64,000 nt of DNA, taken from assembly GCA_028716565.1 (NCBI GenBank), contig JAQUPL010000008.1, positions 13,067-77,066 of the forward strand. Direction: 5' to 3'. The notes under the pieces were generated by a model. That model was not told the DNA's origin and searched no databases. It saw only the letters and a list, made by a program, of their open reading frames with translations. Origin of the DNA: Candidatus Omnitrophota bacterium (GTDB lineage: Bacteria > Omnitrophota > Gorgyraeia > Pluralincolimonadales > Pluralincolimonadaceae). Positions 11,636 through 62,382 of the stretch are shown here, piece after piece; positions within the stretch are counted from its first letter, which is position 1; each line of letters starts with the position of its first letter. A program made the translations under genes and the position numbers.

Positions 11636-13081
11636 TCAAGCCCTGTTAACTACAAACGTCCTTTTAAGCGAATCCATCAGCCTGCCCCTTTTTATCTCCC
11701 TCGCGAAGACGCCGGCAAGCAGGCGGGGTATTACGCAAATAAACGAGATGACCTCTCCGAAGGTCAAAACCCTGTTTTTAAAGGCGCCCTTACAGAATAT
11801 CTTAAAATAGCGCTGGGGGGTGTAGAAAGAGAATTTTATCGTCCTGCCTATATTCTTCAGCGCCGGATAGTCATATGTATCGGAATAAAGCTCTCCCTTT
11901 TCGGTAATATGGTAACCGGGCGTTTTCTCCGCCAACTCCCTTATTGGGGAATACTTCTCTATCCTTAGTTTATTGCAGGTAATAAAATCCAGGCCTAACT
12001 CTTTGGCGAATTCGGGTATGTAGAGCATCTCTTCTTTGCTCTCGCCTATATTGCCGTAGATGAAATAACCGTTATAAAATATCGGGTATTTTGTCAGTAC
12101 CTTAAACGCTTCCCTGACCGTGGCGGAATCAAAACCCTTGTTCAGCTGCGCCAATATGCGATCGTGGGGGGACTCTATCCCGACCAGTAACGCCTTGAAT
12201 CCCGCCTTGACCATCTTGCTTAGAAGGCGGGGATGTTTGAATAACTCGATGCGGGCCTGGGCGATAAAACGTTTCTTTATCTTGCGCTTGATTATCTCAT
12301 CGCATATCTTTTCCGCCCTGCCCGCGTCGGCAAAAAGGTTATCATCGCTGAACAGGACTATCTTGGCGGTTATCCCTTCCAGTTCCCTGATCACCGAGTC
12401 GACGCTGCGCGCCGTATAAGCCCGTCTTTGGCCGAGGGGATTCATGTTGAATGTGCAGAATTTGCAATTGTGGGGACATCCCCTAGCGGAGAGGATCGAG
12501 TCAAACGTCAGGTTCATCATTTCGATCCCGTTCACGGCAAGGCTGTATTTATTATTCCTTAAAGAACGGCGCGGGGCAGGCATATCCTCTATATCCAGCA
12601 GGGGCCTGTTCTTATTGTGGACCACGACGCCTTTTTCCACATAAGAGATACCGAGGATATCTTTCAGGGGCAGGCCCTTGAGTATATCCCGTATCGTCTC
12701 TTCCCCTTCGCCGCGGACGACAATAGTGACATTCGGGCAGATCTTGAAAAATTCATCCGCCATCTCCGTCGCCTTATACCCTCCGACAACCACCGGTATA
12801 TTGGCGGGGAAACGATTAAGGAGCTCGCATATCTCCTTGAACTGACGGTCCCAGCCGATAGTTACGCAGACGATATCGATCTCTTTTGCTATAAAATCCA
12901 GCAGTTTAGCCGGATCGGAGAGCTCTTTTTCGTACCTAAGATCGATGAGCGTCAGCTTCTCAACTAGCCCTTCGGCGCTGCTCGCGACATACTCGAGGCC
13001 GGTCGGAGGGAAGAGTTTCATGACGCTCGTATTGCTGCTTTCGATATAGGGATTCAGGAATAAGGCGTGCTTGTATTTCAC
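11636..13081 (-). CDS. B12-binding domain radical SAM protein (class B rSAM)
   Basis: An N-terminal cobalamin-binding region is followed by the CPHNCKFC radical SAM cluster motif. It has a GTG start. Confidence 0.8.
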   Translation of the reverse strand: MKYKHALFLNPYIESSNTSVMKLFPPTGLEYVASSAEGLVEKLTLIDLRYEKELSDPAKLLDFIAKEIDIVCVTIGWDRQFKEICELLNRFPANIPVVVGGYKATEMADEFFKICPNVTIVVRGEGEETIRDILKGLPLKDILGISYVEKGVVVHNKNRPLLDIEDMPAPRRSLRNNKYSLAVNGIEMMNLTFDSILSARGCPHNCKFCTFNMNPLGQRRAYTARSVDSVIRELEGITAKIVLFSDDNLFADAGRAEKICDEIIKRKIKKRFIAQARIELFKHPRLLSKMVKAGFKALLVGIESPHDRILAQLNKGFDSATVREAFKVLTKYPIFYNGYFIYGNIGESKEEMLYIPEFAKELGLDFITCNKLRIEKYSPIRELAEKTPGYHITEKGELYSDTYDYPALKNIGRTIKFSFYTPQRYFKIFCKGAFKNRVLTFGEVISFICVIPRLLAGVFAREIKRGRLMDSLKRTFVVNRA

Positions 13082-13092
13082 TCGGATATTAT

Positions 13093-13115
13093 AACATAAA
13101 ATACCCCCTTTGGGG
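13093..13115 (-). terminator. intrinsic terminator-like hairpin (GCCCC-AAA-GGGGG followed by a U-rich tract), 20 nt upstream of the rSAM start codon
   Basis: Read on the minus strand from 13116 down to 13093, there is a GCCCC stem half, a 3-nt loop and a GGGGG stem half (the plus-strand complements lie at 13112..13115 and 13104..13108), followed by U-rich UAUUUUAUGUU at 13103..13093. Confidence 0.5.
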
Positions 13116-13137
13116 CATAAATATGGCCGGCGTTCCT

Positions 13138-13293
13138 TTATGCTACAGTGACGTCCTCATTCGGAGCCTTCTCCGGCTCCGCTTTAGCTTCTGCGGCTTT
13201 TTTATCCAGCTTGTGCTGCCTCTTCTCTTCTTTCTTCTTTTTATTCGCCATTTCCCTCTGGTACTTTTTAAATGAATAATTATCTCTTGCCAT
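13138..13293 (-). CDS. small Lys/Glu-rich protein (51 aa), unknown function
   Basis: Internal ATG at 13293 preceded by GGGGAG. The sequence MARDNYSFKKYQREMANKKKKEEKRQ... is highly charged. The track ORF is longer (78 aa). Confidence 0.35.
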   Translation of the reverse strand: MARDNYSFKKYQREMANKKKKEEKRQHKLDKKAAEAKAEPEKAPNEDVTVA

Positions 13294-47442: not shown

Positions 47443-48897
47443 TTAAATCCTTTCTCGAGTCAGTCTGTCGAGGATCGCACGCAGCGATACCAGCCCGATA
47501 GTCGTCTGTTGGTCGTTTAACGCGTAAGGGATAATAAGCGTATCGCTATGGACCATTGCTCCGCACGAATAGACGACGTTCGGAACATACCCCGAACGAC
47601 TATTATCCTCCCAATGAATAAGCGGTTCGCTCAACCGGCCAATTACACGCGAAGGATCTTCGCGGTCAAGCAGGGCAGCGCTGATCGAATATTGGCGCAT
47701 CGGCCCGACGCCGTGGGTTAGGAGCAGCCACCCGCGGTCGGTCTCTATCGGAGAACCGCAATTCCCTATCTGCACGAACTCCCATGGATATAATGGACTC
47801 ATTAATGGAACGGCCTCATGCCAGAAATGGATATTATCGGAATACATAAGGAAAAGGTTCTCGTTATCGTTCCGGGAAACCATCGCGTAACGGCCATTTA
47901 TCTTGCGCCGGAACAAAGCCATCCCCTTATTGACCGCCGCCCTGCCGTTCAAGGTGATCATTTTAAAACGGATAAAATCTTCCGTCTCCATTATTTGCGG
48001 CAGGATAACCCTGCCGTCATACGCCGTATATGTGGCGTAATATTTCCCGCTTCCATCATCATTCTTAAAATATACGAAACGCGCATCCTCCATACCGTTC
48101 TGCTCGCTTGGAGAAAGCGGGAACAGGACGCGTTCTGAAAGCGGGAACTTCGGATCGAAAGTAGCTTCATAATTACATCGTGCCAGCCACAAGATCTTTT
48201 CGCAGGTAAGTTTGTCTGTCTGGGTTATCGGATGATGGCCTGCAGTGTAATCCCTGACCTTCTCTTCCAGCTGCTCCATGGTAAACTTTTCCGGTAACGG
48301 GTCCGTAATGTATTTTGAGCAGTTATTCTCCAGCCCCATTTCATAGAGTTTTCCGATGAAACACATCTTATCATAAAGAGCGCTCGGTTTCGGTTCGGCG
48401 GTACACGCGAGACCGGAAGTTTTGTCAATCGATACAGTTCCATATTTGTCTATGAGCCCCGAACGGAACACTAATGTAGATATCTGCCCCTCGCCTGTGG
48501 CGCGCAAAGAAATAATAAAACGCAGGGATCCTTCGGAAACCCCGGATTGGTCGGGATGCGCTACAATAGAAGGATTGAAGAGACCCGTTGATTCATATGA
48601 ACGCTCGCCGATGAAGTACGCTCCTATGAGAAGCCTGCGCGTTTTAGAGGGTGCAAAATCGGGAGGCATATATGCGCAGATGACCTCGAACTGGCGCTCA
48701 AGGATAGAATCAAAATTATGGTGTCGCGCTGAAAAATCCCGTACGGTCTTCTTCAATTCTTCTTCCGCGGCGGACTCGTCAAGAGCCATAATGCGCGAGA
48801 CGATCCCCGGGACGCGTGATTGATTCCCTGGAATGTACGGCCTGATGATGACGCGCCCGCTATCAGGGGCGATGACTATACCGGTATTCTTTATCAT
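47443..48897 (-). CDS. two-domain protein: unknown roughly 250-aa N-terminal domain plus GH130-family (beta-propeller glycoside phosphorylase/transferase-like) C-terminal domain
   Basis: C-terminal DARFVYF ... YYATYTAYDG and further GH130-like motifs. Confidence 0.6.
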   Translation of the reverse strand: MIKNTGIVIAPDSGRVIIRPYIPGNQSRVPGIVSRIMALDESAAEEELKKTVRDFSARHHNFDSILERQFEVICAYMPPDFAPSKTRRLLIGAYFIGERSYESTGLFNPSIVAHPDQSGVSEGSLRFIISLRATGEGQISTLVFRSGLIDKYGTVSIDKTSGLACTAEPKPSALYDKMCFIGKLYEMGLENNCSKYITDPLPEKFTMEQLEEKVRDYTAGHHPITQTDKLTCEKILWLARCNYEATFDPKFPLSERVLFPLSPSEQNGMEDARFVYFKNDDGSGKYYATYTAYDGRVILPQIMETEDFIRFKMITLNGRAAVNKGMALFRRKINGRYAMVSRNDNENLFLMYSDNIHFWHEAVPLMSPLYPWEFVQIGNCGSPIETDRGWLLLTHGVGPMRQYSISAALLDREDPSRVIGRLSEPLIHWEDNSRSGYVPNVVYSCGAMVHSDTLIIPYALNDQQTTIGLVSLRAILDRLTRERI

Positions 48898-51173
48898 TCC
48901 TCCAAGGGCTCCTTAAGACTTTCGAGAACATTTTCCATCTCTGTCATCTCGGTCAGGGAAAGAAGAAATGAAAGCGTAGATTCAGCGCCTTGATTGCGGT
49001 TCACCCTGTTAATGTGAAGCCCGTCGCAGCATCCGCCCGTCACCGGGTCATATAGTGAAATGCCGAGATCGTTGCTACCGAGGAACCACTGAAAAACATT
49101 TAAGGCTTCCTCGTACCACATCTTGTCTTTTGTTACGCGATAGGCATCGAGGCATGCCGAAACGGTAGCATAGGCTTCCACCGGTTGCTGGTCAAAGACA
49201 GGCTTGACCCCGCCGCGAATGTATTCGCCATCCGTGCCTACCGGCTGGAAATGGCCGCGGGACGAGGTCTGTACCTTCGTAAGCCAACTTAAAGACTCAA
49301 CCCCGGATCTCAGCATCTCTTCGTTATCGAGATCGTGTCCGCTTAACAAAAGGGCATGGGGTAATTTGGCGTCGCAATACGTCAGGGATGATTCAAACCA
49401 TCGCCATTCCGCATCGCTATTTGCCTTGTAAAGATCGTGAAGCCGAGCAGCGAGTGTCTGCAGGCAGTTGCGTGCGAGCCTGTCCCCGTGAAAACGCTGC
49501 AGATATTCATGTATACCTAGCAATATGAAAGCCCATGCGCGCGGCGAAGTAAACGACACCGAAGGGGCAAGCGCCTTTTCGAATAACTCGACCGACATCT
49601 GGGTAAAACCTTCATTTTTTGACCGCCCGATGCAGGTACCGATAGCCCATATCGCCCTACCGTGGCAATCTTCGCTGGACGTTTCTTCTTTCCAATTTCG
49701 CTGGAAGGTCAGGAAATTCCTGAACCGTACCATGGAGGGATCCCACGCGTATTTGACAAACCCGAGGTAACGGCTCGAGAGATCGTTGATCTTAAGAGGA
49801 TTTATGGTACCGAGGTTCTCAAGCAGGACGGTCAGGATGAGCGCCCGCGCATTGTCGTCTGTGCAATACCCTTCGGAAAAGTTGGGGACATTGAACGTGG
49901 CATGCTGGAAGATCCCGATGGAATCGGTCATCCTTACGAGATGATCTAGCTTGATATCGGGCAATACGGGAACCTGTTGTTCAAGAGGATACATCGTCAC
50001 CTTCTTTTGCGTCGCTGGAGAACGTTTCATTTTTGCTTCTTCAAAGATCGACGTATATTTTGACGCAACATTGCTCCATATCATCTCGCGGCCTAAAAGA
50101 TAGGCATTCTTGCGCATCGTATTACGTTCGTTTTCATTGACGATAAGCCTTGTAACCGCCTGCCCTATCGCTTCCGGATCGTTGAACGGTACAAGAATGC
50201 CCCTGCCGTCGCTGAGCAGTTCGGCGGCATGCCAGTATGGGGTCGAGATTACCGCGTTTCCTACGCCGAACGAATAGGCAAGGGTCCCGGAAACTACCTG
50301 CGCTTCTTCAAAATACGGGGTAATATAAATATCGGCGAGCACGAGCAACTCTTTAAGTTCTTCAGAAGATACGAAACGATTATGAAAAATGACATTACGC
50401 GAGATCTCAAGCTCATCGCAAAGACGTTGTAAAAAAAGCCTGTATGATTCACCCTCGTGTCTTAATAGATTGGGATGCGTAGCGCCGACGACTATGTATA
50501 CGGTGCTCGGACGCTCTTTTATGACTTTGGGAAGTGCGCGCAGGACTACCTCTATCCCCTTGCGCGGAGAAAGCAGCCCAAACGTAAGGAGCACGGTCTT
50601 GCCCTCAACCCCATACTGGTCTTTATAGAAATTCGGGTCGATGAAAGAAACGTCGGGTATCCCGTGCGGGACCAGCCGTATCTTAGATCCGTGTATCTTA
50701 TTTACTGCCTGAAGGATGTCGGCAGCCTTTTGCGTCATTACGACCGCATAATCAGACAGGCCAAGCAATTCATCCATAACGCGTCTCTGGCGCGCGGACG
50801 GATTTTTCAGTACCGTATGCAGGGTCGTTATTATGGGCATCTTCAATTGGCGTAATAAAGCCAATATATAACCGCCTGCGTCGCCTCCAAAAATACCGAA
50901 TTCGTGCTGAAGACAGACAACATCGATGTCGTTGAGGTTGAGGAAATCCGCTGCGGCTTTGTACGAGTCTATATCCTGCTCCTTGATCTCGAAACGTACG
51001 CGTTCCGGATAATCGTAACCTTCCTCGATATCCGTGACAGGTATCGCGAATACCTGGACAGAAGGGTTCAAGGCCGCGAACGCCTCGCAGATATCCGTGG
51101 TAAAAGTCGCGATGCCGCAGCGTCTGGGAAGATAATTTCCTATGAACGCTATCTTTTTGATATCATTGGCCAT
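48894..51173 (-). CDS. GT4-family glycosyltransferase fused to a C-terminal (alpha/alpha)6 glycosidase-like domain
   Basis: The N-terminal roughly 390 aa carry GT4 motifs (E-x7-E region, GGIPE-like). The C-terminal roughly 370 aa form a six-hairpin-like domain. The gene overlaps the GH130 start by 4 nt. Confidence 0.7.
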   Translation of the reverse strand: MANDIKKIAFIGNYLPRRCGIATFTTDICEAFAALNPSVQVFAIPVTDIEEGYDYPERVRFEIKEQDIDSYKAAADFLNLNDIDVVCLQHEFGIFGGDAGGYILALLRQLKMPIITTLHTVLKNPSARQRRVMDELLGLSDYAVVMTQKAADILQAVNKIHGSKIRLVPHGIPDVSFIDPNFYKDQYGVEGKTVLLTFGLLSPRKGIEVVLRALPKVIKERPSTVYIVVGATHPNLLRHEGESYRLFLQRLCDELEISRNVIFHNRFVSSEELKELLVLADIYITPYFEEAQVVSGTLAYSFGVGNAVISTPYWHAAELLSDGRGILVPFNDPEAIGQAVTRLIVNENERNTMRKNAYLLGREMIWSNVASKYTSIFEEAKMKRSPATQKKVTMYPLEQQVPVLPDIKLDHLVRMTDSIGIFQHATFNVPNFSEGYCTDDNARALILTVLLENLGTINPLKINDLSSRYLGFVKYAWDPSMVRFRNFLTFQRNWKEETSSEDCHGRAIWAIGTCIGRSKNEGFTQMSVELFEKALAPSVSFTSPRAWAFILLGIHEYLQRFHGDRLARNCLQTLAARLHDLYKANSDAEWRWFESSLTYCDAKLPHALLLSGHDLDNEEMLRSGVESLSWLTKVQTSSRGHFQPVGTDGEYIRGGVKPVFDQQPVEAYATVSACLDAYRVTKDKMWYEEALNVFQWFLGSNDLGISLYDPVTGGCCDGLHINRVNRNQGAESTLSFLLSLTEMTEMENVLESLKEPLEE

Positions 51174-51237
51174 CTTGTCTATCTCCGGCTACAAATAAAG
51201 AACCATCTGATTTTTCGTCAGATGGCGGCCCGACCAT
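51163..51237 (-). promoter_or_regulatory. leader ORF (24 aa, SD GGAGGA) spanning a terminator-like hairpin (CCATCTGA-7 nt-TCAGATGG plus U-tract, 51193-51225) and ending inside the GT4 start: candidate attenuator
   Basis: Hairpin stem at 51203-51210 and 51218-51225. The U-tract UUCUUUAUUUGU follows on the minus strand, and the GT4 SD GGAGAU and ATG come immediately after. Leader ATG at 51237, stop TGA at 51165..51163. Confidence 0.4.
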
Positions 51238-51354
51238 CAAAAATCCTCCGAAAATATGTTTTCTATTCTCGGACCCTTTTAATTACTTCATAAGTATAAC
51301 ATATTTTTTTTGAAAAACAACCTTTAATCGCGGCGTGGACGGAAGAAATAAAGG

Positions 51355-54507: not shown

Positions 54508-55842
54508 CTAGAAATCAAAGCTTGCCTCGAACCCCAGGACCAGGGCATTGTCGACATCGCTTTTGCCGTCGGGATTAATTATATACTGTATATCGGGGGT
54601 GACGTAACACCACGGCCCCAGTTGGAACCTGTGGTCCAGTTCAAGGATCATTTCGTCGGTCTGGCCTTCCAGTTTGTCGCTGAAATGGCCGAGGATGAAA
54701 CAGAAAGCCGTGACATCGCGGTTGCGGTTGGGCGGCAGCCCCTGATAAACAAGGCCTGTGGCTATCTGATAGGTTTGCGGGTTTATGTCATCCTGCGGGG
54801 CCAGCATGCCGGCGCCCCATACCGTGAGCCCTTTAGGCCTGTCAAGCGGCAGGGCCGTCATCTGCGGGTCATGCGGTTTTTTGAGGCTCTCTGACATCTT
54901 CGCGCCCGATCTCAGATGGGACGGGCCTTCATATTCAGGCCACTCGCCTTTGTATATCATCTTGTCCGCCACGAGATAAAATCCGTAATTGCCGTGATTC
55001 CGGATATCAGGATTTGAGAGGTATGTAAAGCTGCTTGACTCATAGTAGCTTCCGAACGATATCCCCCCGGGAGTTATCAGGCCCTCCCTCTCCTGCCCAT
55101 GCCTGTAAGTTATCTGTCCGACGGTAAGATAGCCCTTATCCGTCCTCAAGCTGAAATCAGCTCCGTTTTTATTGGGTTCCGCTACGCTCGGGTCCGCGTC
55201 ATATAAACCGGTGATAACGCTCCAGTCTTTGTTTGGCTGGAAAGTGGCCCTTGTGCCCCATGCGGCAGTGCGATAATGCGGGAAAAAGATGTCGGAAGGG
55301 ATAGCACCCAACCTTCCGTCGACCGCGCTCGTCAGGTAATATTTGAACATCGGCGAGACGGCAAGGATATCTCCGGCAAAAATGCGGCCGGCCTCCAGGT
55401 TGAAAGTATCGTCAAGCACCGACTTCGAAAGTTTGAGCTCGCCGAAGTAGTAGTCGCCGGACGTAAATACCTGCTGCGGGCTGTAGAAAGACCCTATAGG
55501 GACCGTTATATCCCGGCCGCTCGCCAGGAAGTTGCTTACTTTAAGCGACAATCCCTGTATGGAAGCTATCTTCTCGAAATCCAGCACGGCAGCAAGCGAA
55601 ACAAATCCGGAATAATCCGTGGTCTGTTTGAGCCCGCCCGAAGGGTTACCTCCTGTATCCGTGGTGTAGTTCGAGGAAACGCTTATTCCGGATCTTTCTA
55701 GTGAATCGCGAAGGCCTCCCCAATTGCCCGTAGCGGTTTTTTGCGACAACCAGCCGTCGAGCGCCGAAGCGTTTGCGGCGGTTGCCGAAAGGACAAGCAA
55801 CAGTAAGATAACTGCCGCCGCTACTTTTTTATCCGGGATCAC
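54508..55842 (-). CDS. outer membrane porin (OprB-like carbohydrate/substrate-selective porin family)
   Basis: Signal peptide. 444 aa, beta-rich with a C-terminal Phe. Confidence 0.45.
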   Translation of the reverse strand: MIPDKKVAAAVILLLLVLSATAANASALDGWLSQKTATGNWGGLRDSLERSGISVSSNYTTDTGGNPSGGLKQTTDYSGFVSLAAVLDFEKIASIQGLSLKVSNFLASGRDITVPIGSFYSPQQVFTSGDYYFGELKLSKSVLDDTFNLEAGRIFAGDILAVSPMFKYYLTSAVDGRLGAIPSDIFFPHYRTAAWGTRATFQPNKDWSVITGLYDADPSVAEPNKNGADFSLRTDKGYLTVGQITYRHGQEREGLITPGGISFGSYYESSSFTYLSNPDIRNHGNYGFYLVADKMIYKGEWPEYEGPSHLRSGAKMSESLKKPHDPQMTALPLDRPKGLTVWGAGMLAPQDDINPQTYQIATGLVYQGLPPNRNRDVTAFCFILGHFSDKLEGQTDEMILELDHRFQLGPWCYVTPDIQYIINPDGKSDVDNALVLGFEASFDF

Positions 55843-56930
55843 CGTTTGAAATATCCCTTGATCTTAGATACGTCGCCTTTTTCTTTCGCGATCGCGAGCA
55901 TTAAAAGCAGCCGCGCCTTCGCGCCGGTAAGGTCGCCGCCTAATATGGCGCCGTCTTTTTCCATTGTCGCGCCACCGCCCTGGTCCCCGTACATCGGCCA
56001 GACGCCGCTGTGATATACGCTCGTGGTTATGACGACGGGTATGCCTTTTGCCATCGCGTATTTGACGGCTTCATAAACTTTCTCGTTGACATTGCCCGCG
56101 CCGACAGCATCCACCACTATCCCCTTTGAGCCGTGGTCCGCCGCGAAACGCACGAACGAGCCGTCATCGCCGGCAAACGTGCTTAAGAAAGCTACATCCG
56201 GCAATTTATCAGGAAGGGGAAGTTTTTGTTTTGCCGGGGCGACATTATAACGGATGACCTTTCCCATCACTATATAGCCGAGATAGCCCTTCTCTCCGGA
56301 ATCGAAAGTCTGGACATTTGTCGAATTGGTCTTTACCACGTTCCTCGCGGAATTTACATACTGATTAAGGGTAATGGTAACGCCCCAATCTTGCGCTTCT
56401 TTCGAGCATACCTGCGTCACGGCATTGAGTATGTTCGCAGGACCGTCGGGAGAAACGTCGGATGCGTCGCGCATAGCGCCGACAAATGCTACCGGTTTAT
56501 TGCTCTTCAACGTAAGTTCGAGGAAGTACGCCCCCTCGGCCATAGTGTCGGTGCCGTGAGTTACTACCGCTCCCTTGACCTTCGGGTCCGCGAGATGTGC
56601 GTCGACGGTCTTCGAAAGCTGGGCCCAGATCTCGGGCGTCATCTGGGAGCTGTCTATATTGCAGAGGTTGACCACTTCTATATTGGCGACCTTGCCAAGG
56701 CCGGGAACTGCAGCGATGAGGTCTTTGCCTGATACCGCGGGCACAGCGCCGCCGGTCTTCGTGTCTGTCTTTTCAGCTATAGTGCCGCCTGTAGTGACGA
56801 TCACCACCGTCGGCAATTCCGCGTGGCAACGCGCGGCAAAAACCGCCAAAACCGCGATGCAGCAGATCGAAATCGCCGCGTATCTCGCCGTCTTCATGGT
56901 TCCTCCTTTTGTATGCGTCGCCTCGTTCAC
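55839..56930 (-). CDS. ansB: periplasmic type II L-asparaginase
   Basis: Signal peptide. TGGTIAE (catalytic Thr), HGTDTM and further type II asparaginase motifs. Overlaps the porin start by 4 nt. Confidence 0.85.
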   Translation of the reverse strand: MNEATHTKGGTMKTARYAAISICCIAVLAVFAARCHAELPTVVIVTTGGTIAEKTDTKTGGAVPAVSGKDLIAAVPGLGKVANIEVVNLCNIDSSQMTPEIWAQLSKTVDAHLADPKVKGAVVTHGTDTMAEGAYFLELTLKSNKPVAFVGAMRDASDVSPDGPANILNAVTQVCSKEAQDWGVTITLNQYVNSARNVVKTNSTNVQTFDSGEKGYLGYIVMGKVIRYNVAPAKQKLPLPDKLPDVAFLSTFAGDDGSFVRFAADHGSKGIVVDAVGAGNVNEKVYEAVKYAMAKGIPVVITTSVYHSGVWPMYGDQGGGATMEKDGAILGGDLTGAKARLLLMLAIAKEKGDVSKIKGYFKR

Positions 56931-58612
56931 ATCAGGTTTACGATAAGCGTCCCCCAGACTGTCAGGAGGACGTTCGCAAATGCATAAGGGGCTGCATATC
57001 CCAATACGGCCAATGGGCTGCCGGACGCTTCGATGACCACGTTAAGCGAGGCGGTACAGTTATGCGAACCTGTCGCCGCGCCTAATAACAATATCGGATT
57101 CACCTTCAGGACCTTCAGCCCTAAAATCATTACCACGATGATAGGCAGGGTCGTTACAGCGATACCTCCCATGAAAACCGAAAGGCCTGTTGTCTTGATC
57201 GCCTGCAGCGCCTGCGGCCCGGCAGCGACTCCCACACAGGCCACGAAAAGATTCAACCCAAGATCCCCAAGTATCCACTGCGCGCCGCCGGGGATCTGCC
57301 CGAAGGTGGGATGCAGCGACCTGAGCCACCCGCATAAAAGCCCGGCGACAAGGACGCCGCCGCCCGTGCCCAGCGTGATCGGAATGCCTAATATAGGAAC
57401 GACTATAAGCCCTATGAGGGTACCTACTATACAGCCGACAGCCACGGTGACCAGGTCCGTCACGGTAGTAGGCCGCTCGGGGTATCCCAGGAACGCGATA
57501 GTCTTTTCGACATCTTCTTTCGCGCCGGTGATCTGCAGTATATCGCACTTATGCACAACCGTCCCAGGCATGATGGGCAGTTCATGGCCCTGCCTTATAG
57601 CCTTACGCAGGAATACCCCGTGCGCAAGCTTTAATTTTCCGAGCTCCCCCAGCGTTTTGCCCGCTACATTCTTATTCAGGACACAGACATCTATGACCTC
57701 GCCGGTCACGTCGATTACAGTCGCGCGGTCGACTTCCGGCCCTATAAGGTCCCCGGCATTTACCAAACGGGCTGTCGGGCCCATCACCAGCAAAGTATCA
57801 TCGCGCGAGATGACTGTCTCCGGAGTGCTCTCAATGGCCTGGCCGCCTCTCATTATCTTATCTATCGCCGCTCTATTAGGTAAAAGAGACTCGACCTGGG
57901 AAATGCTCTTGCCCACTACCGCTCCGTTCAGGGCCCTGTAAGCCCTCATATCGAGCCGCTGCGTCCACGAGAAAGTCCCCTGGTTCTCCTCATCGGAGCC
58001 GGAACCGCCCATCTGTTCTTCCAGTTTTTTTGCTTCAGCCTTAAGGTCTATCTTGAACAGGACAGGCGCCAATTTAACGAGGACTATCGTACCGGCGGTG
58101 CCGAATATATACGTGATCGCGTATGCGATCGCCATATTGGAATCGAGCGCGTTCTTTTCGTCCGGCGTTACATCGAGGCGTTTGACGGCATCGCCTCCCG
58201 TACCCAGGGCTGCCGAGGTCGTCATCGAACCGGCGAACATGCCCGCGGTAGTGCCCTTGTCAAAATGGGCGGCCTTACCGATGAAGATCGCCGTCGCCAA
58301 CGATGTTATAGCCACTGCGATCGTCAGCCAAAGATAATTCATGCCGTCCTTCTTGAGCGAGCCGAAGAACTGGGGCCCGACCTTGTAACCTACGGTAAAT
58401 ATGAACAGCGCGAAGCTTATGCTCTTCAGGATCGGCGGGATCGTTATGCCGACCTGGCCGACCACGATGGCAGCCAGCAGGATCGAGGCGGTCGAGCCGA
58501 GGGTGAAACCGAAGATTTTGAGCCTCTTTCCCGCAAAATATCCGATGGCAAGCGCCAGGAAGAGCACCAGTTCGGGATTGTTACGCATCGTCTCCAGGAT
58601 ATCATGCACCAT
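56927..58612 (-). CDS. AAE-family (AspT/YidE/YbjL) aspartate:alanine-type exchanger with central tandem TrkA-C (RCK_C) domains
   Basis: Duplicated 5-6 TM halves separated by two RCK_C-like cytoplasmic domains. 561 aa. Overlaps ansB by 4 nt. Confidence 0.8.
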   Translation of the reverse strand: MVHDILETMRNNPELVLFLALAIGYFAGKRLKIFGFTLGSTASILLAAIVVGQVGITIPPILKSISFALFIFTVGYKVGPQFFGSLKKDGMNYLWLTIAVAITSLATAIFIGKAAHFDKGTTAGMFAGSMTTSAALGTGGDAVKRLDVTPDEKNALDSNMAIAYAITYIFGTAGTIVLVKLAPVLFKIDLKAEAKKLEEQMGGSGSDEENQGTFSWTQRLDMRAYRALNGAVVGKSISQVESLLPNRAAIDKIMRGGQAIESTPETVISRDDTLLVMGPTARLVNAGDLIGPEVDRATVIDVTGEVIDVCVLNKNVAGKTLGELGKLKLAHGVFLRKAIRQGHELPIMPGTVVHKCDILQITGAKEDVEKTIAFLGYPERPTTVTDLVTVAVGCIVGTLIGLIVVPILGIPITLGTGGGVLVAGLLCGWLRSLHPTFGQIPGGAQWILGDLGLNLFVACVGVAAGPQALQAIKTTGLSVFMGGIAVTTLPIIVVMILGLKVLKVNPILLLGAATGSHNCTASLNVVIEASGSPLAVLGYAAPYAFANVLLTVWGTLIVNLM

Positions 58613-58621
58613 GCAGGCCTC

Positions 58622-60211
58622 CTACTTTTTGGATTCTTTCCACGTATTGTAATAATCCTCGAGCAGTTCGCTTATGCCTTTGCCGATCTCCGTATAGGCG
58701 CTGTCGTCGAGATTGGCCAGCGACACCCTGATCGACATGTTCGGCGCATCGAAACCGCCGCCGTCCATAAGGACTATCGACTTTTCGTCCGCCAGCCTCC
58801 AAACGAAGTCTATCGGCTCAAAATTCTTGACCAGATAGTCCGCGAAATCCGCGTTATAGCGCGTCTTGGCGAGCTCCGGTATATCGATAGTCGCGTAGTA
58901 ACGGGCGTCGTATTCATCATCCGGGGCTTTTACTCCGACGGCGGAGTAGAGGGCCTCGAAGCGCTTCTTGACGATATCCTGCGCCATCTTCTTGTAATCG
59001 CCCTTCTTGTCCATGAGGCAGTGCAGCGAAAACATCACCATCATCACCTGCTGCGGCGTCGAAAGCCCGGCGGTATGGTGCAGCGCTACCGAACGCGAAT
59101 CGGCGACCATCCGGTCGATCAGTTTCATGTGGTCCGGGCCGAGCTCGACGGTGCAATAACGGGCGTGCAGCTCTTCCTTGTCGTCCGGCGGCAGGGCCGC
59201 TATGCGCTTATCGAAGACATTATCCTCGTGTATGCCTATTACGCCGAGGCGCCATCCGGTCGCCCCGAAATACTTGGAAAAAGAATACACGAGGACCGTG
59301 TTGCGCGGGGCTGCGGCGGCAAGCGACTTGAAACCGTTGACGAACGTGCCGTACACGTCATCGGTAAGTATTATGAGGTCTTTCCTGCGCGTCTCAACCA
59401 ACTCCGTTATCTTATCGAGCGACTTCTGCTGGATGCTGACCGATGTGGGATTGGAGGGATTAACAAGGAAGAACGCCTTGACGGCGGGGTCGGCCAGTTT
59501 TTCAAGCTCCGAGTCCGGATACTGCCAGTCCGAATTCTCGTCCTGTTTCACCTCCAGCTCGATGAGTTCATAGTCGTTGAGCCTGGGTATTTCCAGGTAA
59601 GGCGTGAATATCGGCGTACCGATCGCGATCTTGTCGCCCTTATGTATCAGTTTATTTTCCGACAGGCTCGTAAAGATATAATCCATCGCAGCGGTGCCGC
59701 CTTCCGTGGCGAAGAGGTCGAATTTCCCTATCGGCGCGAGGCCGAACATCTCCTGCTCAAGATATTTGTGCACTATCTTTTCGCAGATCTCGAGCATCCT
59801 GTCGGGCGTGGGATAATGGTCGCCGAGGACGGCGTCCACCATCTCGTTTAAGAAATCATCGCCATCTATCTTCATGACCACGCAGACATAGTCAAATGCC
59901 TGGGCCAGGAACGCGGCGCCGGGCGCGCCGGAATTCTTGGCGAGATAATCCTTGAACCTTTTGGATAGCCCTTCCTTCTGCGCGACCGTCCCAAGGCCGG
60001 GCCTGTGGGGAGAGCGCTGGGATTCTGACAAGGCGAACATGCCGAACTGCAGGAAAGCTTCCCTCGGCGCTATGGCGACCCAGTTCGGGTTGCCCCTTCC
60101 GGCATTCAGCATGATCTTCTCGCGGCGCGTCTCGGCCATGCTGATCAGCTTATTCTTCAGTTCAAACGGGCTCAGGGCTTCATAACCTTTTTCTTCTTCC
60201 GAACGCTGCAT
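58622..60211 (-). CDS. aspD: L-aspartate 4-(beta)-decarboxylase (PLP fold type I, AspD/AsdA)
   Basis: 529 aa aminotransferase-fold protein of the characteristic AsdA length with N-terminal motif NAGRGNPNW. It is adjacent to an AspT-type exchanger, as in the aspD-aspT operons of Tetragenococcus and Pseudomonas. Confidence 0.75.
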   Translation of the reverse strand: MQRSEEEKGYEALSPFELKNKLISMAETRREKIMLNAGRGNPNWVAIAPREAFLQFGMFALSESQRSPHRPGLGTVAQKEGLSKRFKDYLAKNSGAPGAAFLAQAFDYVCVVMKIDGDDFLNEMVDAVLGDHYPTPDRMLEICEKIVHKYLEQEMFGLAPIGKFDLFATEGGTAAMDYIFTSLSENKLIHKGDKIAIGTPIFTPYLEIPRLNDYELIELEVKQDENSDWQYPDSELEKLADPAVKAFFLVNPSNPTSVSIQQKSLDKITELVETRRKDLIILTDDVYGTFVNGFKSLAAAAPRNTVLVYSFSKYFGATGWRLGVIGIHEDNVFDKRIAALPPDDKEELHARYCTVELGPDHMKLIDRMVADSRSVALHHTAGLSTPQQVMMVMFSLHCLMDKKGDYKKMAQDIVKKRFEALYSAVGVKAPDDEYDARYYATIDIPELAKTRYNADFADYLVKNFEPIDFVWRLADEKSIVLMDGGGFDAPNMSIRVSLANLDDSAYTEIGKGISELLEDYYNTWKESKK

Positions 60212-60228
60212 GATGCGCTCCTTTCCAA

Positions 60229-60255
60229 TAAAAAAGCGGCCCGTTTCCGAGCCGC
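60229..60255 (-). terminator. strong intrinsic terminator (GCGGCUCG-GAAA-CGGGCCGC followed by U6) 18 nt upstream of the aspD start codon
   Basis: 8-bp stem with a GNRA tetraloop at 60236..60255, and an A6 run on the plus strand at 60230..60235. Confidence 0.6.
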
Positions 60256-60256
60256 C

Positions 60257-60289
60257 TTAAAATTTATACTTCTTTTTTATCCCCTCCAT
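60257..60289 (-). CDS. 10-aa leader peptide MEGIKKKYKF (candidate attenuation leader)
   Basis: ATG at 60289 preceded by GAGAGGAAG. The UAA stop lies 1 nt before the terminator stem. Confidence 0.35.
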   Translation of the reverse strand: MEGIKKKYKF

Positions 60290-60315
60290 CGCGCTTCCTC
60301 TCTATAAGCGAATTC

Positions 60316-60344
60316 AATATATCTTAAACGTAGAAAATTGTCAA
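60316..60344 (-). promoter_or_regulatory. sigma70-type promoter for the aspD leader (TTGACA-17-TATATT)
   Basis: -35 at 60344..60339, -10 at 60321..60316. Confidence 0.5.
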
Positions 60345-60427
60345 ATTATAATTCGAAAGCGGCGGGCAAGACTAGCGATATTATCGCTAACATTTATTTG
60401 ATTATAGCTGAGAGTGGATATAATTAG

Positions 60428-60464
60428 AGGCCTTGCTTCTTATAAATTTAAAAACAAGGCCTCT
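60428..60464 (-). terminator. 9-bp-stem hairpin (GAGGCCTTG ... CAAGGCCTC) 28 nt downstream of the small membrane protein gene
   Basis: Perfect inverted repeat with a 19-nt AT-rich loop. Confidence 0.35.
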
Positions 60465-60491
60465 TCTTGACAGCTCTAATACAGTTTCTAA

Positions 60492-60803
60492 TTACGCCCC
60501 TGCATACTTTGCTCTCTTACGCTTTCTTGCAGCTACTGCTACCATTACCCCCCATATTAGGAAAATGGACAGGGTCATCGGAACGCCAACCCTCAACATT
60601 TCCGGGAAGACTTCGGTAAGGCCAGCGGTCAGGAATGGCGGATAAAGAACAATTTCTCCGTGGGAGATATGTTCGACTGCTAACATTACCACTCCTCCCC
60701 ACAACATCGAATTTAACCAATTGAAATGGTATTTTTCACTAGCTTTTTTCCCTACAGTAGTTGTCACTATTGCCGCGGCCGCTGGGACAAGAAAACAAGC
60801 CAT
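60492..60803 (-). CDS. small integral membrane protein (103 aa, 3 TM), paralog of the next gene
   Basis: Shared pattern with 60807-61085 (..LWGG.VM.L.EHI.HGE..), hydrophobic helices and a basic C-terminus. Confidence 0.4.
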   Translation of the reverse strand: MACFLVPAAAAIVTTTVGKKASEKYHFNWLNSMLWGGVVMLAVEHISHGEIVLYPPFLTAGLTEVFPEMLRVGVPMTLSIFLIWGVMVAVAARKRKRAKYAGA

Positions 60804-60806
60804 CGG

Positions 60807-61085
60807 TTACCTCCTTTTTAAGTTTGAGATTAGAAGTAAAATTCCCCAGGTCATAAACACAGGCGCCAACATTGCTATTCCTAACATAACACCATTTTTG
60901 ATCATTCCGTCTGTAGTCTTCTCCAAAAACGCTCCGCCTTCATATCCTAATATATGGTCGGTAAGAATCATTGCTGCCGCTCCCCAGAGCATTAAAGCTA
61001 GAAAACCTAACTTGTAATCCTTGGGTAAAACAAACTTACCTAAAGTCGCGCCCGCTGCCGCGATAGAAGTCGTTACTAACCACAT
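60807..61085 (-). CDS. small integral membrane protein (92 aa, 3 TM), paralog
   Basis: See above. It is preceded by the full-length repeat element carrying a promoter. Confidence 0.4.
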   Translation of the reverse strand: MWLVTTSIAAAGATLGKFVLPKDYKLGFLALMLWGAAAMILTDHILGYEGGAFLEKTTDGMIKNGVMLGIAMLAPVFMTWGILLLISNLKRR

Positions 61086-61153
61086 CTCTTGCCTCCTCTC
61101 ATTTTTTTAAACTTCCTTGTCTTATAATAGGACTAAATAACTGATTATATTTT

Positions 61154-61263
61154 GGGGTCCCTCTCCTGTTTCATGAGGGAAACCTCTCTTATTTAGCTGG
61201 TTTTATTATAAAGGTAATATTTTACCATATCAAGGATTATTGGGGATCGGAGAGGGATTCCCC
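61154..61263 (-). repeat. full-length roughly 110-bp repeat element with imperfect terminal inverted repeats (GGGGTCCCTCTCC ... GGAGAGGGATTCCCC) and an internal TTGATA-17-TATAAT promoter (-10 at 61210..61205, -35 at 61233..61228)
   Basis: Homologous to copies at 33826-33900, 36341-36385, 39900-40010 and 63631-63700, plus shorter core copies at 10170, 15490, 23827, 52853 and 54483. Confidence 0.6.
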
Positions 61264-61423
61264 TGCGGAATCGATATTAAACTTTCGCATATTGTGTAAA
61301 AGCGCGTCCCGGTCACCAAAAGTATCAAAAAGCACATCTTGGTTGATTAAAAATGAGACGCCCCACATACGGATAAAACGCTCCCATTTTGTTGAACCAA
61401 CTGCAATAACTTGTACTTGCAAA

Positions 61424-61789
61424 CTAATGGCAACCGTGCTGGGCGCAGGCGTTCTGCGCGGTTATCTCTTCGAGCTCGTTGCCTTTGAATTTCTTGATAA
61501 TATCTGCAACGGTTTCCGCCGATGCCTTATAGGCCTTTATATTGGCTTCGTTTAATTTCTGCACCGCCCTCATTCCCATGCCCTGGCAGACAACCGCATC
61601 GATAGATGACAACCCTATTACGCCTAAAGGATGGCATGTGCCATGTGAATGATGGGCGTTGGTATTGTCAACGGTCTTCGCTTCATCCTTCTCGGTATCG
61701 TAAATGGTAAAATACGGTGCGCTGCCGAAATGCCCGTGGACTTTGGCGTTCAAGCCTTCCTTGCTTTCCGTCGGTATACATATCCTCAT
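61424..61789 (-). CDS. NifB/NifX-like dinitrogenase FeMo-cofactor-binding family protein (PF02579-like)
   Basis: MRICIPTES ... VHGHFGSAPYFTIYD, typical of this small-domain family. Confidence 0.65.
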   Translation of the reverse strand: MRICIPTESKEGLNAKVHGHFGSAPYFTIYDTEKDEAKTVDNTNAHHSHGTCHPLGVIGLSSIDAVVCQGMGMRAVQKLNEANIKAYKASAETVADIIKKFKGNELEEITAQNACAQHGCH

Positions 61790-62382
61790 TTTACTTCTCC
61801 TTTTGTCGCTATCAGGACATACTGACAGCTGTCGTTGTGTTTTATTACGGCCATCCCGGACCTCTTTAACAATGCCACTATTGCGCCCAAAGACAATTTT
61901 GAACGCGGATGCGTATGGCCTTCCATCCCGTGTATCTTTTCCGCTATCCGTTCGCCTTTCCTGTTGAAATCCGTGATCACCAGCTTATTTTTGACCACCC
62001 TGGCCATCTCCTTAAGGCATTTTACTGGAGCTTTCGCGTGATGAAGAAAGTTCACGGAGATTACATTGTCAAATGCCATATCTTTAAATTTTAACCGCTC
62101 CGCGTTCATGATCTTAAGGGTTACCAGCTTATCAATCCCGAGCGCCTTGAGTCTTGACTTAGCGGTTTTCTGGGCTTTCCTGTCTACGTCTATCGAGACC
62201 AGGCTAAAGCCCCTTCTCGCCAAGGCAATAGCCATATGGCCGCTTCCCGTGCCGACCTCTAAAATGCTGCCATTGGCAAATCCGGCTTTTCTTAAAATGA
62301 ACCTCCTTGCTTTAGGGATATCGTAACCGTGCCTCTTAAAAAACTTCAGCCTATCCTGGCTCTGTTTTAATAGATTATCCAT
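61786..62382 (-). CDS. class I SAM-dependent methyltransferase
   Basis: Motif I LEVGTGSGHMAIALARRG, a D-acidic motif II, and a VNFLHH region. Confidence 0.75.
   Translation of the reverse strand: MDNLLKQSQDRLKFFKRHGYDIPKARRFILRKAGFANGSILEVGTGSGHMAIALARRGFSLVSIDVDRKAQKTAKSRLKALGIDKLVTLKIMNAERLKFKDMAFDNVISVNFLHHAKAPVKCLKEMARVVKNKLVITDFNRKGERIAEKIHGMEGHTHPRSKLSLGAIVALLKRSGMAVIKHNDSCQYVLIATKGEVK

Follow-up and report, generated by a model that had tools for sequence, protein, structure and literature searches.

The 64-kb stretch of Candidatus Omnitrophota DNA analyzed here, called the window when its full length is meant, carries an operon that begins with aspD and aspT, the genes for a bifunctional aspartate transaminase/aspartate 4-decarboxylase and an aspartate:alanine antiporter. 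Directly upstream of aspD lies a compact leader element of ~130 bp, in which a promoter, a short open reading frame (sORF) with its own Shine–Dalgarno (SD) sequence, and an intrinsic terminator are followed closely by the SD of aspD. A preliminary description had listed these parts without naming a strand; the leader is on the minus strand. Comparison with related loci makes it very probable that the leader is a cis-acting attenuator. How it would work is a more tentative matter, and the mechanism favored below is one in which a translating ribosome would mask the 5′ arm of the terminator. The parts of the leader in the window are as follows:

60339..60344, minus strand: −35 hexamer TTGACA, with a 17-nucleotide (nt) spacer to the −10; homology among loci begins here, and none extends further upstream
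60316..60321, minus strand: −10 hexamer TATATT, a sequence match
60294..60300, minus strand: SD-like purine tract GAGGAAG of the leader sORF, its GAGG core 7 nt 5′ of the sORF ATG
60257..60289, minus strand: leader sORF MEGIKKKYKF, 10 codons plus a TAA stop (ATG 60289-60287, TAA 60259-60257)
60259..60262, minus strand: U-run UUUU just 5′ of the hairpin foot; T58, T59, and T61 are 90–100% conserved in alignment A2
60233..60258, minus strand: intrinsic-terminator hairpin in its 11-bp extended form, with a core of 8 bp (60255-60248 with 60243-60236)
60227..60235, minus strand: terminator U-tract UUUUUUAUU (U6AUU), of which U6 is 60235-60230; T85–T90 are invariant in A2
60218..60223, minus strand: aspD SD AAGGAG, 6 nt 5′ of the aspD ATG at 60211

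The near-consensus TTGACA-17-TATATT promoter reported in the preliminary description is present, with 11 of 12 positions of the two hexamers matching the consensus, and it is one of only two pairs that good in 5 kb. The match by itself is not significant, as 7 promoter-like sites were counted per 5 kb against 4.2 ± 2.6 in shuffled sequence. From the position of the promoter, transcription is predicted to start near 60309. The leader length of roughly 100 nt given earlier agrees with the ~98 nt from the predicted start to the aspD ATG, while the terminated RNA would be shorter, at ~80 nt.

The terminator hairpin has the GC-rich stem-loop followed directly by a U-tract that characterizes intrinsic terminators. 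Its core stem consists of GCGGCUCG/CGGGCCGC closed by a GAAA loop, with the single nucleotide G60256 separating the stem from the sORF stop; the stem grows to 11 pairs via AAG/CUU, a form that includes two bases (AA) of the stop codon. The predicted folding energy is −19 kcal/mol (z = −5.4), and none of 200 shuffled sequences folded equally well. The end of U6 lies 18 nt from the aspD ATG, an interval that contains the AAGGAG. The whole arrangement previously described, i.e., a short ORF with an SD, a UAA 1 nt from an 8-bp GAAA-loop stem, U6, and the aspD ATG 18 nt on, is thus found in the window. It had also been argued that no promoter fits between terminator and gene, and a scan of the window sequence found no promoter-like site between the hairpin and the aspD ATG. 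Transcription of aspD from the leader promoter must therefore pass the terminator, and the promoter, sORF, terminator, and aspD SD are conserved as a unit.

Genome and metagenome collections, together with exact-protein look-ups, supplied the loci carrying aspD, of which 148 were fetched. The search for similar leaders upstream of aspD homologs that had been proposed was productive, yielding 12 homologous relatives and two unrelated leaders of the same layout. The homologous family of 13 comprises the window and L001, L079, L080, L106, L118, L138, L140, L142, L143, L145, L146, and L147, and the AspD proteins of these 12 relatives are 83–90% identical to that of the window. In 11 of the 13 leaders the promoter stands at the same place as TTGAC[AT]-17-TATAnT, with the sORF ATG 26–31 nt past the −10. 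An SD-like tract (AAGGAA, GAAAGG, or AGAGGAA) is also found in 11 of the 13. The conserved columns of A2 are the SD-like purines, ATGGA, the U-run 2–4 nt before the hairpin foot, the hairpin base, the U-tract, and TTGGAAAGGAG.

Across the 13 leaders, 96.9% of the cells in the terminator hairpin are paired, compared with 38–68% in slid controls, and compensatory changes are found at three hairpin pairs (for example, GCGGC/GCCGC vs GCGAC/GUCGC). A covariance model was trained on 12 leaders; L147, fetched afterwards and outside the training set, was recovered by the model at 72 bits. The model was run on the 64-kb window and on 113 of the 148 fetched loci, and it found no copies besides the aspD leaders themselves. 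The hairpin might instead have served as the terminator of whichever gene lies upstream, and this was rejected; in L142 and L143 the upstream gene has a terminator of its own that precedes the promoter, and across loci the upstream genes vary while the module from promoter to SD is conserved.

What is kept in the sORF is its start. The ATG(GA) columns are invariant or nearly so in A2, and the distance from ATG to hairpin is 32–36 nt in 12 of the 13 leaders. The product varies, as follows:

Window: MEGIKKKYKF, frame ends 1 nt before the core stem
L118 and L140: MESQYVKGSF and MESQYVKGNF, frame ends at the hairpin foot
L142 and L143: MEEGNRSAV and MEESNRSAV, frame ends 6 nt before the hairpin
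L145: MESDSSGKI, frame ends 6 nt before the hairpin
L079: MAESAEAH, frame ends 8 nt before the hairpin
L001: MDVK, frame ends 8 nt before the hairpin
L080: 15 amino acids (aa), frame ends inside the hairpin
L138, L106, L146, and L147: 31–40 aa, frames end beyond the terminator, some overlapping the aspD start

The sORFs range from 4 to 40 aa, and peptide, frame, Lys run, and stop position (0–8 nt before the hairpin, inside it, or beyond it) are all variable. No residue beyond Met-Glu is shared among the leader peptides, the conserved U-run columns are read in different frames in different leaders, and in the near-identical pairs L118/L140 and L142/L143 all substitutions are non-synonymous. Conservation of the leader ORF, named earlier as a check, is thus found for the start codon and is absent for the peptide MEGIKKKYKF, its length, and its frame. 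The stop 1 nt from the stem is likewise a property of the window, its position not being conserved among relatives. What all the leaders have in common is an open path: in 15 of 15 sORFs, counting two leaders not homologous to the family, no stop interrupts the frame until it is within 8 nt of the hairpin foot, despite frame-shifting indels. Selection appears to keep a translatable frame that would deliver a ribosome to the hairpin and not to keep a particular peptide.

The two non-homologous leaders have the same layout and occur at AspD identities to the window of 84% and 73%, and no homology to the aspD leader family was detectable with the covariance model at E ≤ 1. In L030 the SD is AAGGAG, and a 12-aa sORF (MWIRSGAQNESR) has its stop 6 nt before an AU-rich terminator. 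L013 combines the SD GGGGGAG with a 32-aa frame that extends across a 14-bp terminator.

A leader peptide invites comparison with systems in which the peptide itself is the sensor, through a KKK run that tunes or stalls the ribosome in response to Asp, Asn, or Lys. Four of the ten codons of the window sORF specify Lys, with A_AAA_AAG in frame, and the decarboxylase/antiporter operon speFL-speF-potE is regulated by a sensory leader peptide. TnaC and SpeFL resemble the aspD leader in being encoded by mini-ORFs upstream of substrate-catabolizing operons that include an antiporter; their peptides are conserved in sequence and act on Rho-dependent termination, whereas the peptide of the aspD leader is unconserved and its terminator intrinsic. 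Codon sensing or peptide arrest is very unlikely here. Neither the peptide nor its length or frame is conserved, no conserved stalling peptide was found, and KKK occurs in the window only, so that the earlier suggestion of three Lys codons modulating ribosome speed finds no comparative support. Sensing of a specific amino acid was rejected on the further ground that codons of the Asp family (D, N, K, T, M, I) show no enrichment, at 33% in frame 0 compared with 44% and 41% in frames 1 and 2. A stalled ribosome would also have no antiterminator to release. Finally, the stop-to-terminator distance of 0–8 nt differs from that of the classical amino-acid attenuators compared, in which the terminator lies >20 nt from the leader stop, a spacing that serves precisely to avoid occlusion (PMC4824070).

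The same heptamer, A_AAA_AAG (60272-60278, minus strand), has the framing of a dnaX-type −1 slippery site, with GGAGGGG just 5′ of it. A −1 frameshift was considered and set aside; the heptamer is kept in no relative, the hairpin is 16 nt off, and the match is probably coincidental.

As in the trp, his, phe, leu, thr, and ilv leaders, a mini-ORF with an SD lies close to the promoter, and an intrinsic terminator comes after it, before the operon. Unlike those leaders, the aspD leader has neither clustered runs of regulatory codons nor mutually exclusive hairpins, whether alternative antiterminator or pause hairpins, and its logic would be reversed, with efficient translation turning the operon ON. 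RNAalifold applied to 12 leaders predicts only the terminator, with no conserved antiterminator and no conserved helix upstream. When each leader is folded as the RNA made before the 3′ arm exists, the structures are weak (−2.6 to −11 kcal/mol) and mutually inconsistent, which argues against both a trp-type antiterminator and an aptamer. A terminator-containing 5′ leader ahead of a metabolic operon is also the setting of a small metabolite riboswitch, for instance one for aspartate, with the terminator as its expression platform. We regard this as the most improbable of the explanations considered. Neither a conserved aptamer nor a curated match was found: an Rfam scan of 58000-62000 at E ≤ 10 returned no hit at its gathering score and only chance-level matches, such as idnO (25 vs 100) and Phe_leader, the best overlapping one (21.9 bits vs a gathering score of 55, E = 2.3). 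Upstream of the hairpin nothing is conserved but the SD/ATG and the U-run, leaving just ~50 nt of poorly conserved, purine-rich RNA in which an aptamer could lie. Two other RNA targets were looked for and dismissed: a CsrA-like GGA in the hairpin loop is present in the window and L145 and, judged by eye, is not conserved, and ANTAR-type dual hairpins are not present.

Since no alternative RNA structure competes with the terminator, we infer that the ribosome would be the antiterminator. The leaders offer what such a mechanism would call for, i.e., a frame with a start that reaches or crosses the hairpin and no competing RNA antiterminator. In the proposed sequence of events, RNA polymerase would start at the conserved sigma-70-type promoter and meet a strong intrinsic terminator ~80 nt on. 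A ribosome initiating at the conserved SD/ATG, 32–36 nt 5′ of the hairpin, would closely trail the polymerase, and its mRNA channel would come to hold the 5′ arm of the hairpin, either at a stop codon by the hairpin foot or while reading through. With the 5′ arm held, no hairpin could form and the operon would be transcribed; with translation of the mini-ORF absent or lagging, the hairpin would form and transcription would stop. The default state would be OFF, efficient and tightly coupled translation would turn the operon ON, and the peptide would have no role of its own. The conserved U-run before the hairpin is a possible site of RNA polymerase pausing that would let the ribosome catch up. 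Translation of the sORF, masking of the hairpin, and pausing of the polymerase are all read from sequence, and an occlusion attenuator of the pyrBI/pyrE/ampC type is put forward as a possibility that falls somewhat short of even odds.

The preliminary description had proposed occlusion of the 5′ arm by a ribosome at the leader stop. The part of that proposal that holds up is the delivery of a ribosome, as the ATG and SD-like tract are kept and frames are open to ≤8 nt. The varying stop position makes a ribosome terminating at the stop too specific, because what is conserved is an ORF that lets the ribosome reach the hairpin and not its stopping place.

Quantitative precedent for direct occlusion comes from E. 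coli, where a terminator placed 5 bp past a stop codon drops from ~90% to <10% efficiency, deletion of the ribosome-binding site restores it, and the effect of translation on the terminator fades by ~27–30 nt from the stop (PMC4824070). The 0–8 nt stop distances and the read-through frames of the aspD leaders would fall in this direct-occlusion regime. The same work bears on timing, as translation costs an E. coli terminator 30 bp past an AUG just ~10% of its efficiency, since a ribosome needs a programmed pause to draw level with the polymerase so soon (PMC4824070). Masking by the ribosome at the aspD leader therefore needs a pause, for which the conserved U-run is the sole candidate.

That distance effect is the first of several points that weigh against masking by the ribosome, and the pause that would answer it is guessed from the conserved U-run alone. 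In five leaders the stop lies 6–8 nt before the hairpin, where a terminating ribosome would cover just the first few bases of the stem. L080 has no SD, and in L001 the SD lies 15 nt from the ATG. Roughly half of the loci within the clade at ≥73% AspD identity have no leader. The openness of the frames has a probability of 0.31–0.71 per leader in composition-preserving shuffles. Multiplied naively over 13 lineages, with each near-identical pair entering once, this gives ~1e-4, a figure weakened by the 8-nt threshold having been set after seeing the data and by the sequences being interrelated.

Control of the terminator could also come from a trans-acting factor, such as an antiterminator protein, a small RNA, or a function at the level of NusA/NusG, with the sORF incidental. 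Such a factor would bind the purine-rich GAUGGAAGAAG region or the U-run and hairpin foot, responding to Asp or Asn. The most conserved positions outside the terminator are indeed a short purine-rich block at the ATG and the U-run, the peptide is unconstrained, with the near-identical pairs differing by non-synonymous substitutions only, and a catabolic operon would be expected to be induced by its substrate. Against this, no regulator gene linked to the operon is found in the window, and no repeated binding motif or dual-hairpin target was seen. A factor would also leave unexplained both the frames open up to the hairpin in all 15 sORFs and the pairing, once more, of a strong SD/ATG with a terminator in the non-homologous L030 and L013. 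On balance, a trans-acting factor seems unlikely.

The spread of the leader is narrow. Among 102 loci with enough upstream sequence, a terminator ≤45 nt from the aspD start was found only in loci whose AspD is ≥73% identical to that of the window, and none was found in the ~75 more distant aspD loci of this survey. In leaderless relatives aspD abuts another gene, with the breakpoint right at the SD, and TTGGAAAGGAG is retained even there.

This distribution bears on the view that the leader is a constitutive partial terminator or a separate small RNA (sRNA) gene, giving an abundant ~80-nt RNA, fixed read-through, and low, unregulated aspD expression. A U-rich stretch followed by a hairpin and a poly-U tail resembles the 3′ module of Hfq-type sRNAs, and a promoter, an RNA of ~80 nt, and a terminator make up the canonical layout of an sRNA gene. 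No sensing element is identifiable in the leader, and the leader is dispensable in many close relatives in which aspD simply follows another gene. For an sRNA, however, the 5′ two-thirds of the RNA, where a seed would lie, is poorly conserved save for the SD/ATG; the covariance model finds copies only upstream of aspD; the tight, conserved join to the aspD SD favors a role in cis; and the openness of the ORF to the hairpin speaks against it. A partial terminator or sRNA gene is accordingly improbable, to about the same degree as a trans-acting factor.

Several observations concern the boundary between leader and gene. Unrelated insertions of 50–130 nt lie exactly between the U-tract (TTTTTTATT) and the aspD SD in three leaders (L145 463-574, L106 1439-1500, and L146 952-1000). 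In L145 the 130-nt insertion contains a promoter-like TTGACA-17-GATTAT, which was rejected as an aspD promoter; its start would fall inside the SD. Leaderless loci such as L003, L141, and L144 likewise join foreign upstream genes directly at TTGGAAAGGAG. This pattern of insertions and junctions suggests a recombination-prone boundary of a mobile aspDT cassette. In L139 (30-145), an AspD relative at 90% identity, the 3′ arm and U-tract (ATTGCCGCTTTTTTT) are kept and the 5′ partner lies ~45 nt away; the resulting long-looped structure folds poorly (z = −0.06), and the contig ends before the expected promoter position. L139 could be either a decayed or an interrupted terminator.

Two inverted repeats lie upstream of the leader in the window. 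A perfect 7-bp repeat, TAGCGAT-ATT-ATCGCTA (60373-60389), is centered ~70 nt 5′ of the predicted leader start and might bind a repressor or activator as an operator. A loose likeness, AGATAA-A-TTATCT, is seen in L079, and the repeat is not conserved in the other leaders. A 9-bp GC-rich repeat, GAGGCCTTG...CAAGGCCTC, with a 19-nt AT-rich loop (60422-60463), lies between a 103-aa membrane-protein ORF and the aspD promoter and has no good U-tract on either strand.

The operon that the leader precedes appears to consist of four genes:

58622..60211, minus strand: aspD, bifunctional aspartate transaminase/aspartate 4-decarboxylase, 529 aa (NF006755 778 bits, TIGR03801 732 bits)
56927..58612, minus strand: aspT, aspartate:alanine antiporter, 561 aa (TIGR03802 579 bits, PF06826), starting 10 nt past the end of aspD
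55839..56896, minus strand: asparaginase gene (PF00710 3.8e-58, PF17763), with a likely ATG at 56896 and SD AAAGGAGG, 30 nt past aspT
54508..55842, minus strand: OprB-family porin gene (PF04966 1e-42), with a 4-nt overlap with the asparaginase stop

The aspD–aspT module is secure, as the NF006755/TIGR03801 and TIGR03802 matches are above their cut-offs and the two genes are 10 nt apart on the same strand. A protein 100% identical to the window AspD is recorded from a Candidatus Omnitrophica metagenome-assembled genome (MAG) under the name bifunctional aspartate transaminase/aspartate 4-decarboxylase, and the nearest AspD relatives come mostly from Omnitrophota MAGs. The porin gene is probably the last of the operon. 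The controlled unit looks like a complete module, in which Asn would be converted to Asp, Asp taken up and decarboxylated, and Ala exported. In the window, the upstream neighbors are small membrane-protein, NifX-like, methyltransferase, and DUF134 genes, and the downstream ones are the asparaginase and porin genes. Just upstream of aspD in L020 and L085 is an ORF whose C-terminal end looked asparaginase-like by eye.

The AspD/AspT pair generates a proton-motive force sufficient for ATP synthesis (PMC9508256). An OFF-by-default logic would make sense where Asp and Asn are consumed to gain energy. The signal read by the leader would probably be translation capacity, amino-acid sufficiency, or the level of nucleoside triphosphates (NTPs), and not a specific amino acid. 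A more particular version, which must be called speculative and doubtful, is a "reverse" attenuator that would read the energy or translation state: a low-NTP pause at the U-run, or a pioneer ribosome keeping pace when aminoacyl-tRNAs are plentiful, would enable masking and turn the Asn/Asp operon, with its yield of proton-motive force, ON.

The closest known relatives of the proposed mechanism are the pyrBI and pyrE (rph-pyrE) attenuators of E. coli. In these, as in the aspD leader, an ORF ends before or crosses an intrinsic terminator directly ahead of the structural gene, a U-rich stretch lies 5′ of the hairpin, and there is no competing RNA antiterminator. The aspD leader differs in having no sequence homology to them and no pyrimidine logic, as its operon is catabolic and energy yielding. 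Its ORF (4–40 codons) is much shorter than rph and has a stop position that varies between relatives. The pausing in pyrBI and pyrE is UTP sensitive, while that in the aspD leader is only putative. The ampC attenuator of E. coli (Jaurin and Normark, 1981) is said to have a very short translated element at the foot of its terminator, where ribosome binding is thought to reduce termination. Its expression is reportedly tied to ribosome availability and growth rate, and the element is reported to be a minimal start-stop, where the window's aspD leader has an ORF of roughly 10 codons. Read-through of the pyrBI/pyrE type needs a ribosome tightly coupled to RNA polymerase (PMC11148124, PMC4824070), and the pyrE attenuator likewise requires close transcription–translation coupling (PMC11148124). 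The antibiotic-responsive, ribosome-mediated attenuators of bmrCD and yxjB/tlrB in Bacillus subtilis combine a leader ORF and a terminator with a NusG-dependent pause at a T-rich site that synchronizes ribosome and polymerase (PMC4191407, PMC6851288). In these systems a drug-stalled ribosome remodels alternative RNA structures, whereas the aspD leader lacks an alternative structure and is not linked to a resistance gene.

Elsewhere in the window, a leader of like layout (51173-51320, minus strand) lies upstream of a 759-aa glycosyltransferase gene (48894-51173). It has a TTGTTT-17-TATACT promoter, the SD GGAGG, and a 24-codon sORF (ATG 51236, MVGPPSDEKSDGSLFVAGDRQDGQ) with a Pro-Pro motif. The sORF crosses a 9-bp hairpin (51226-51203; −12.2 kcal/mol, z = −2.6) that has UUCUUUAUUU after it, and the end of the sORF overlaps the start of the glycosyltransferase gene (ATGGCCAATGA). 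This hints that the device of mini-ORF and terminator may be used more widely in the organism, and it suggests that mini-ORFs may serve Omnitrophota generally as a means of direct terminator occlusion. A further hairpin, UAUGCCCC-AAA-GGGGGUA followed by UUUUAUGUU (13081-13140, minus strand), stands after a 78-aa Lys/Glu-rich ORF. TATAAT comes directly after it and the GTG start of a 481-aa ORF ~8 nt later, such that the 481-aa ORF could have a leaderless or very short-leader transcript.

No description of an aspD/aspT leader, or of regulation of the AspD/AspT proton-motive cycle, was found in the literature searched. We know of no gene-regulatory element from Omnitrophota. The aspD leader represents an undescribed sequence family of a known mechanistic kind, not homologous to pyrBI, pyrE, or ampC, and its importance is limited to the extent that the principle is already known from those three systems. 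For annotators it is a warning against reading a meaningful peptide into every conserved mini-ORF. If the proposed mechanism is true, the family would illustrate in nature the stop-codon-to-terminator distance effect that was measured synthetically in E. coli, and an energy-yielding amino-acid catabolic operon would be tied to transcription–translation coupling by a compact cis-regulator.

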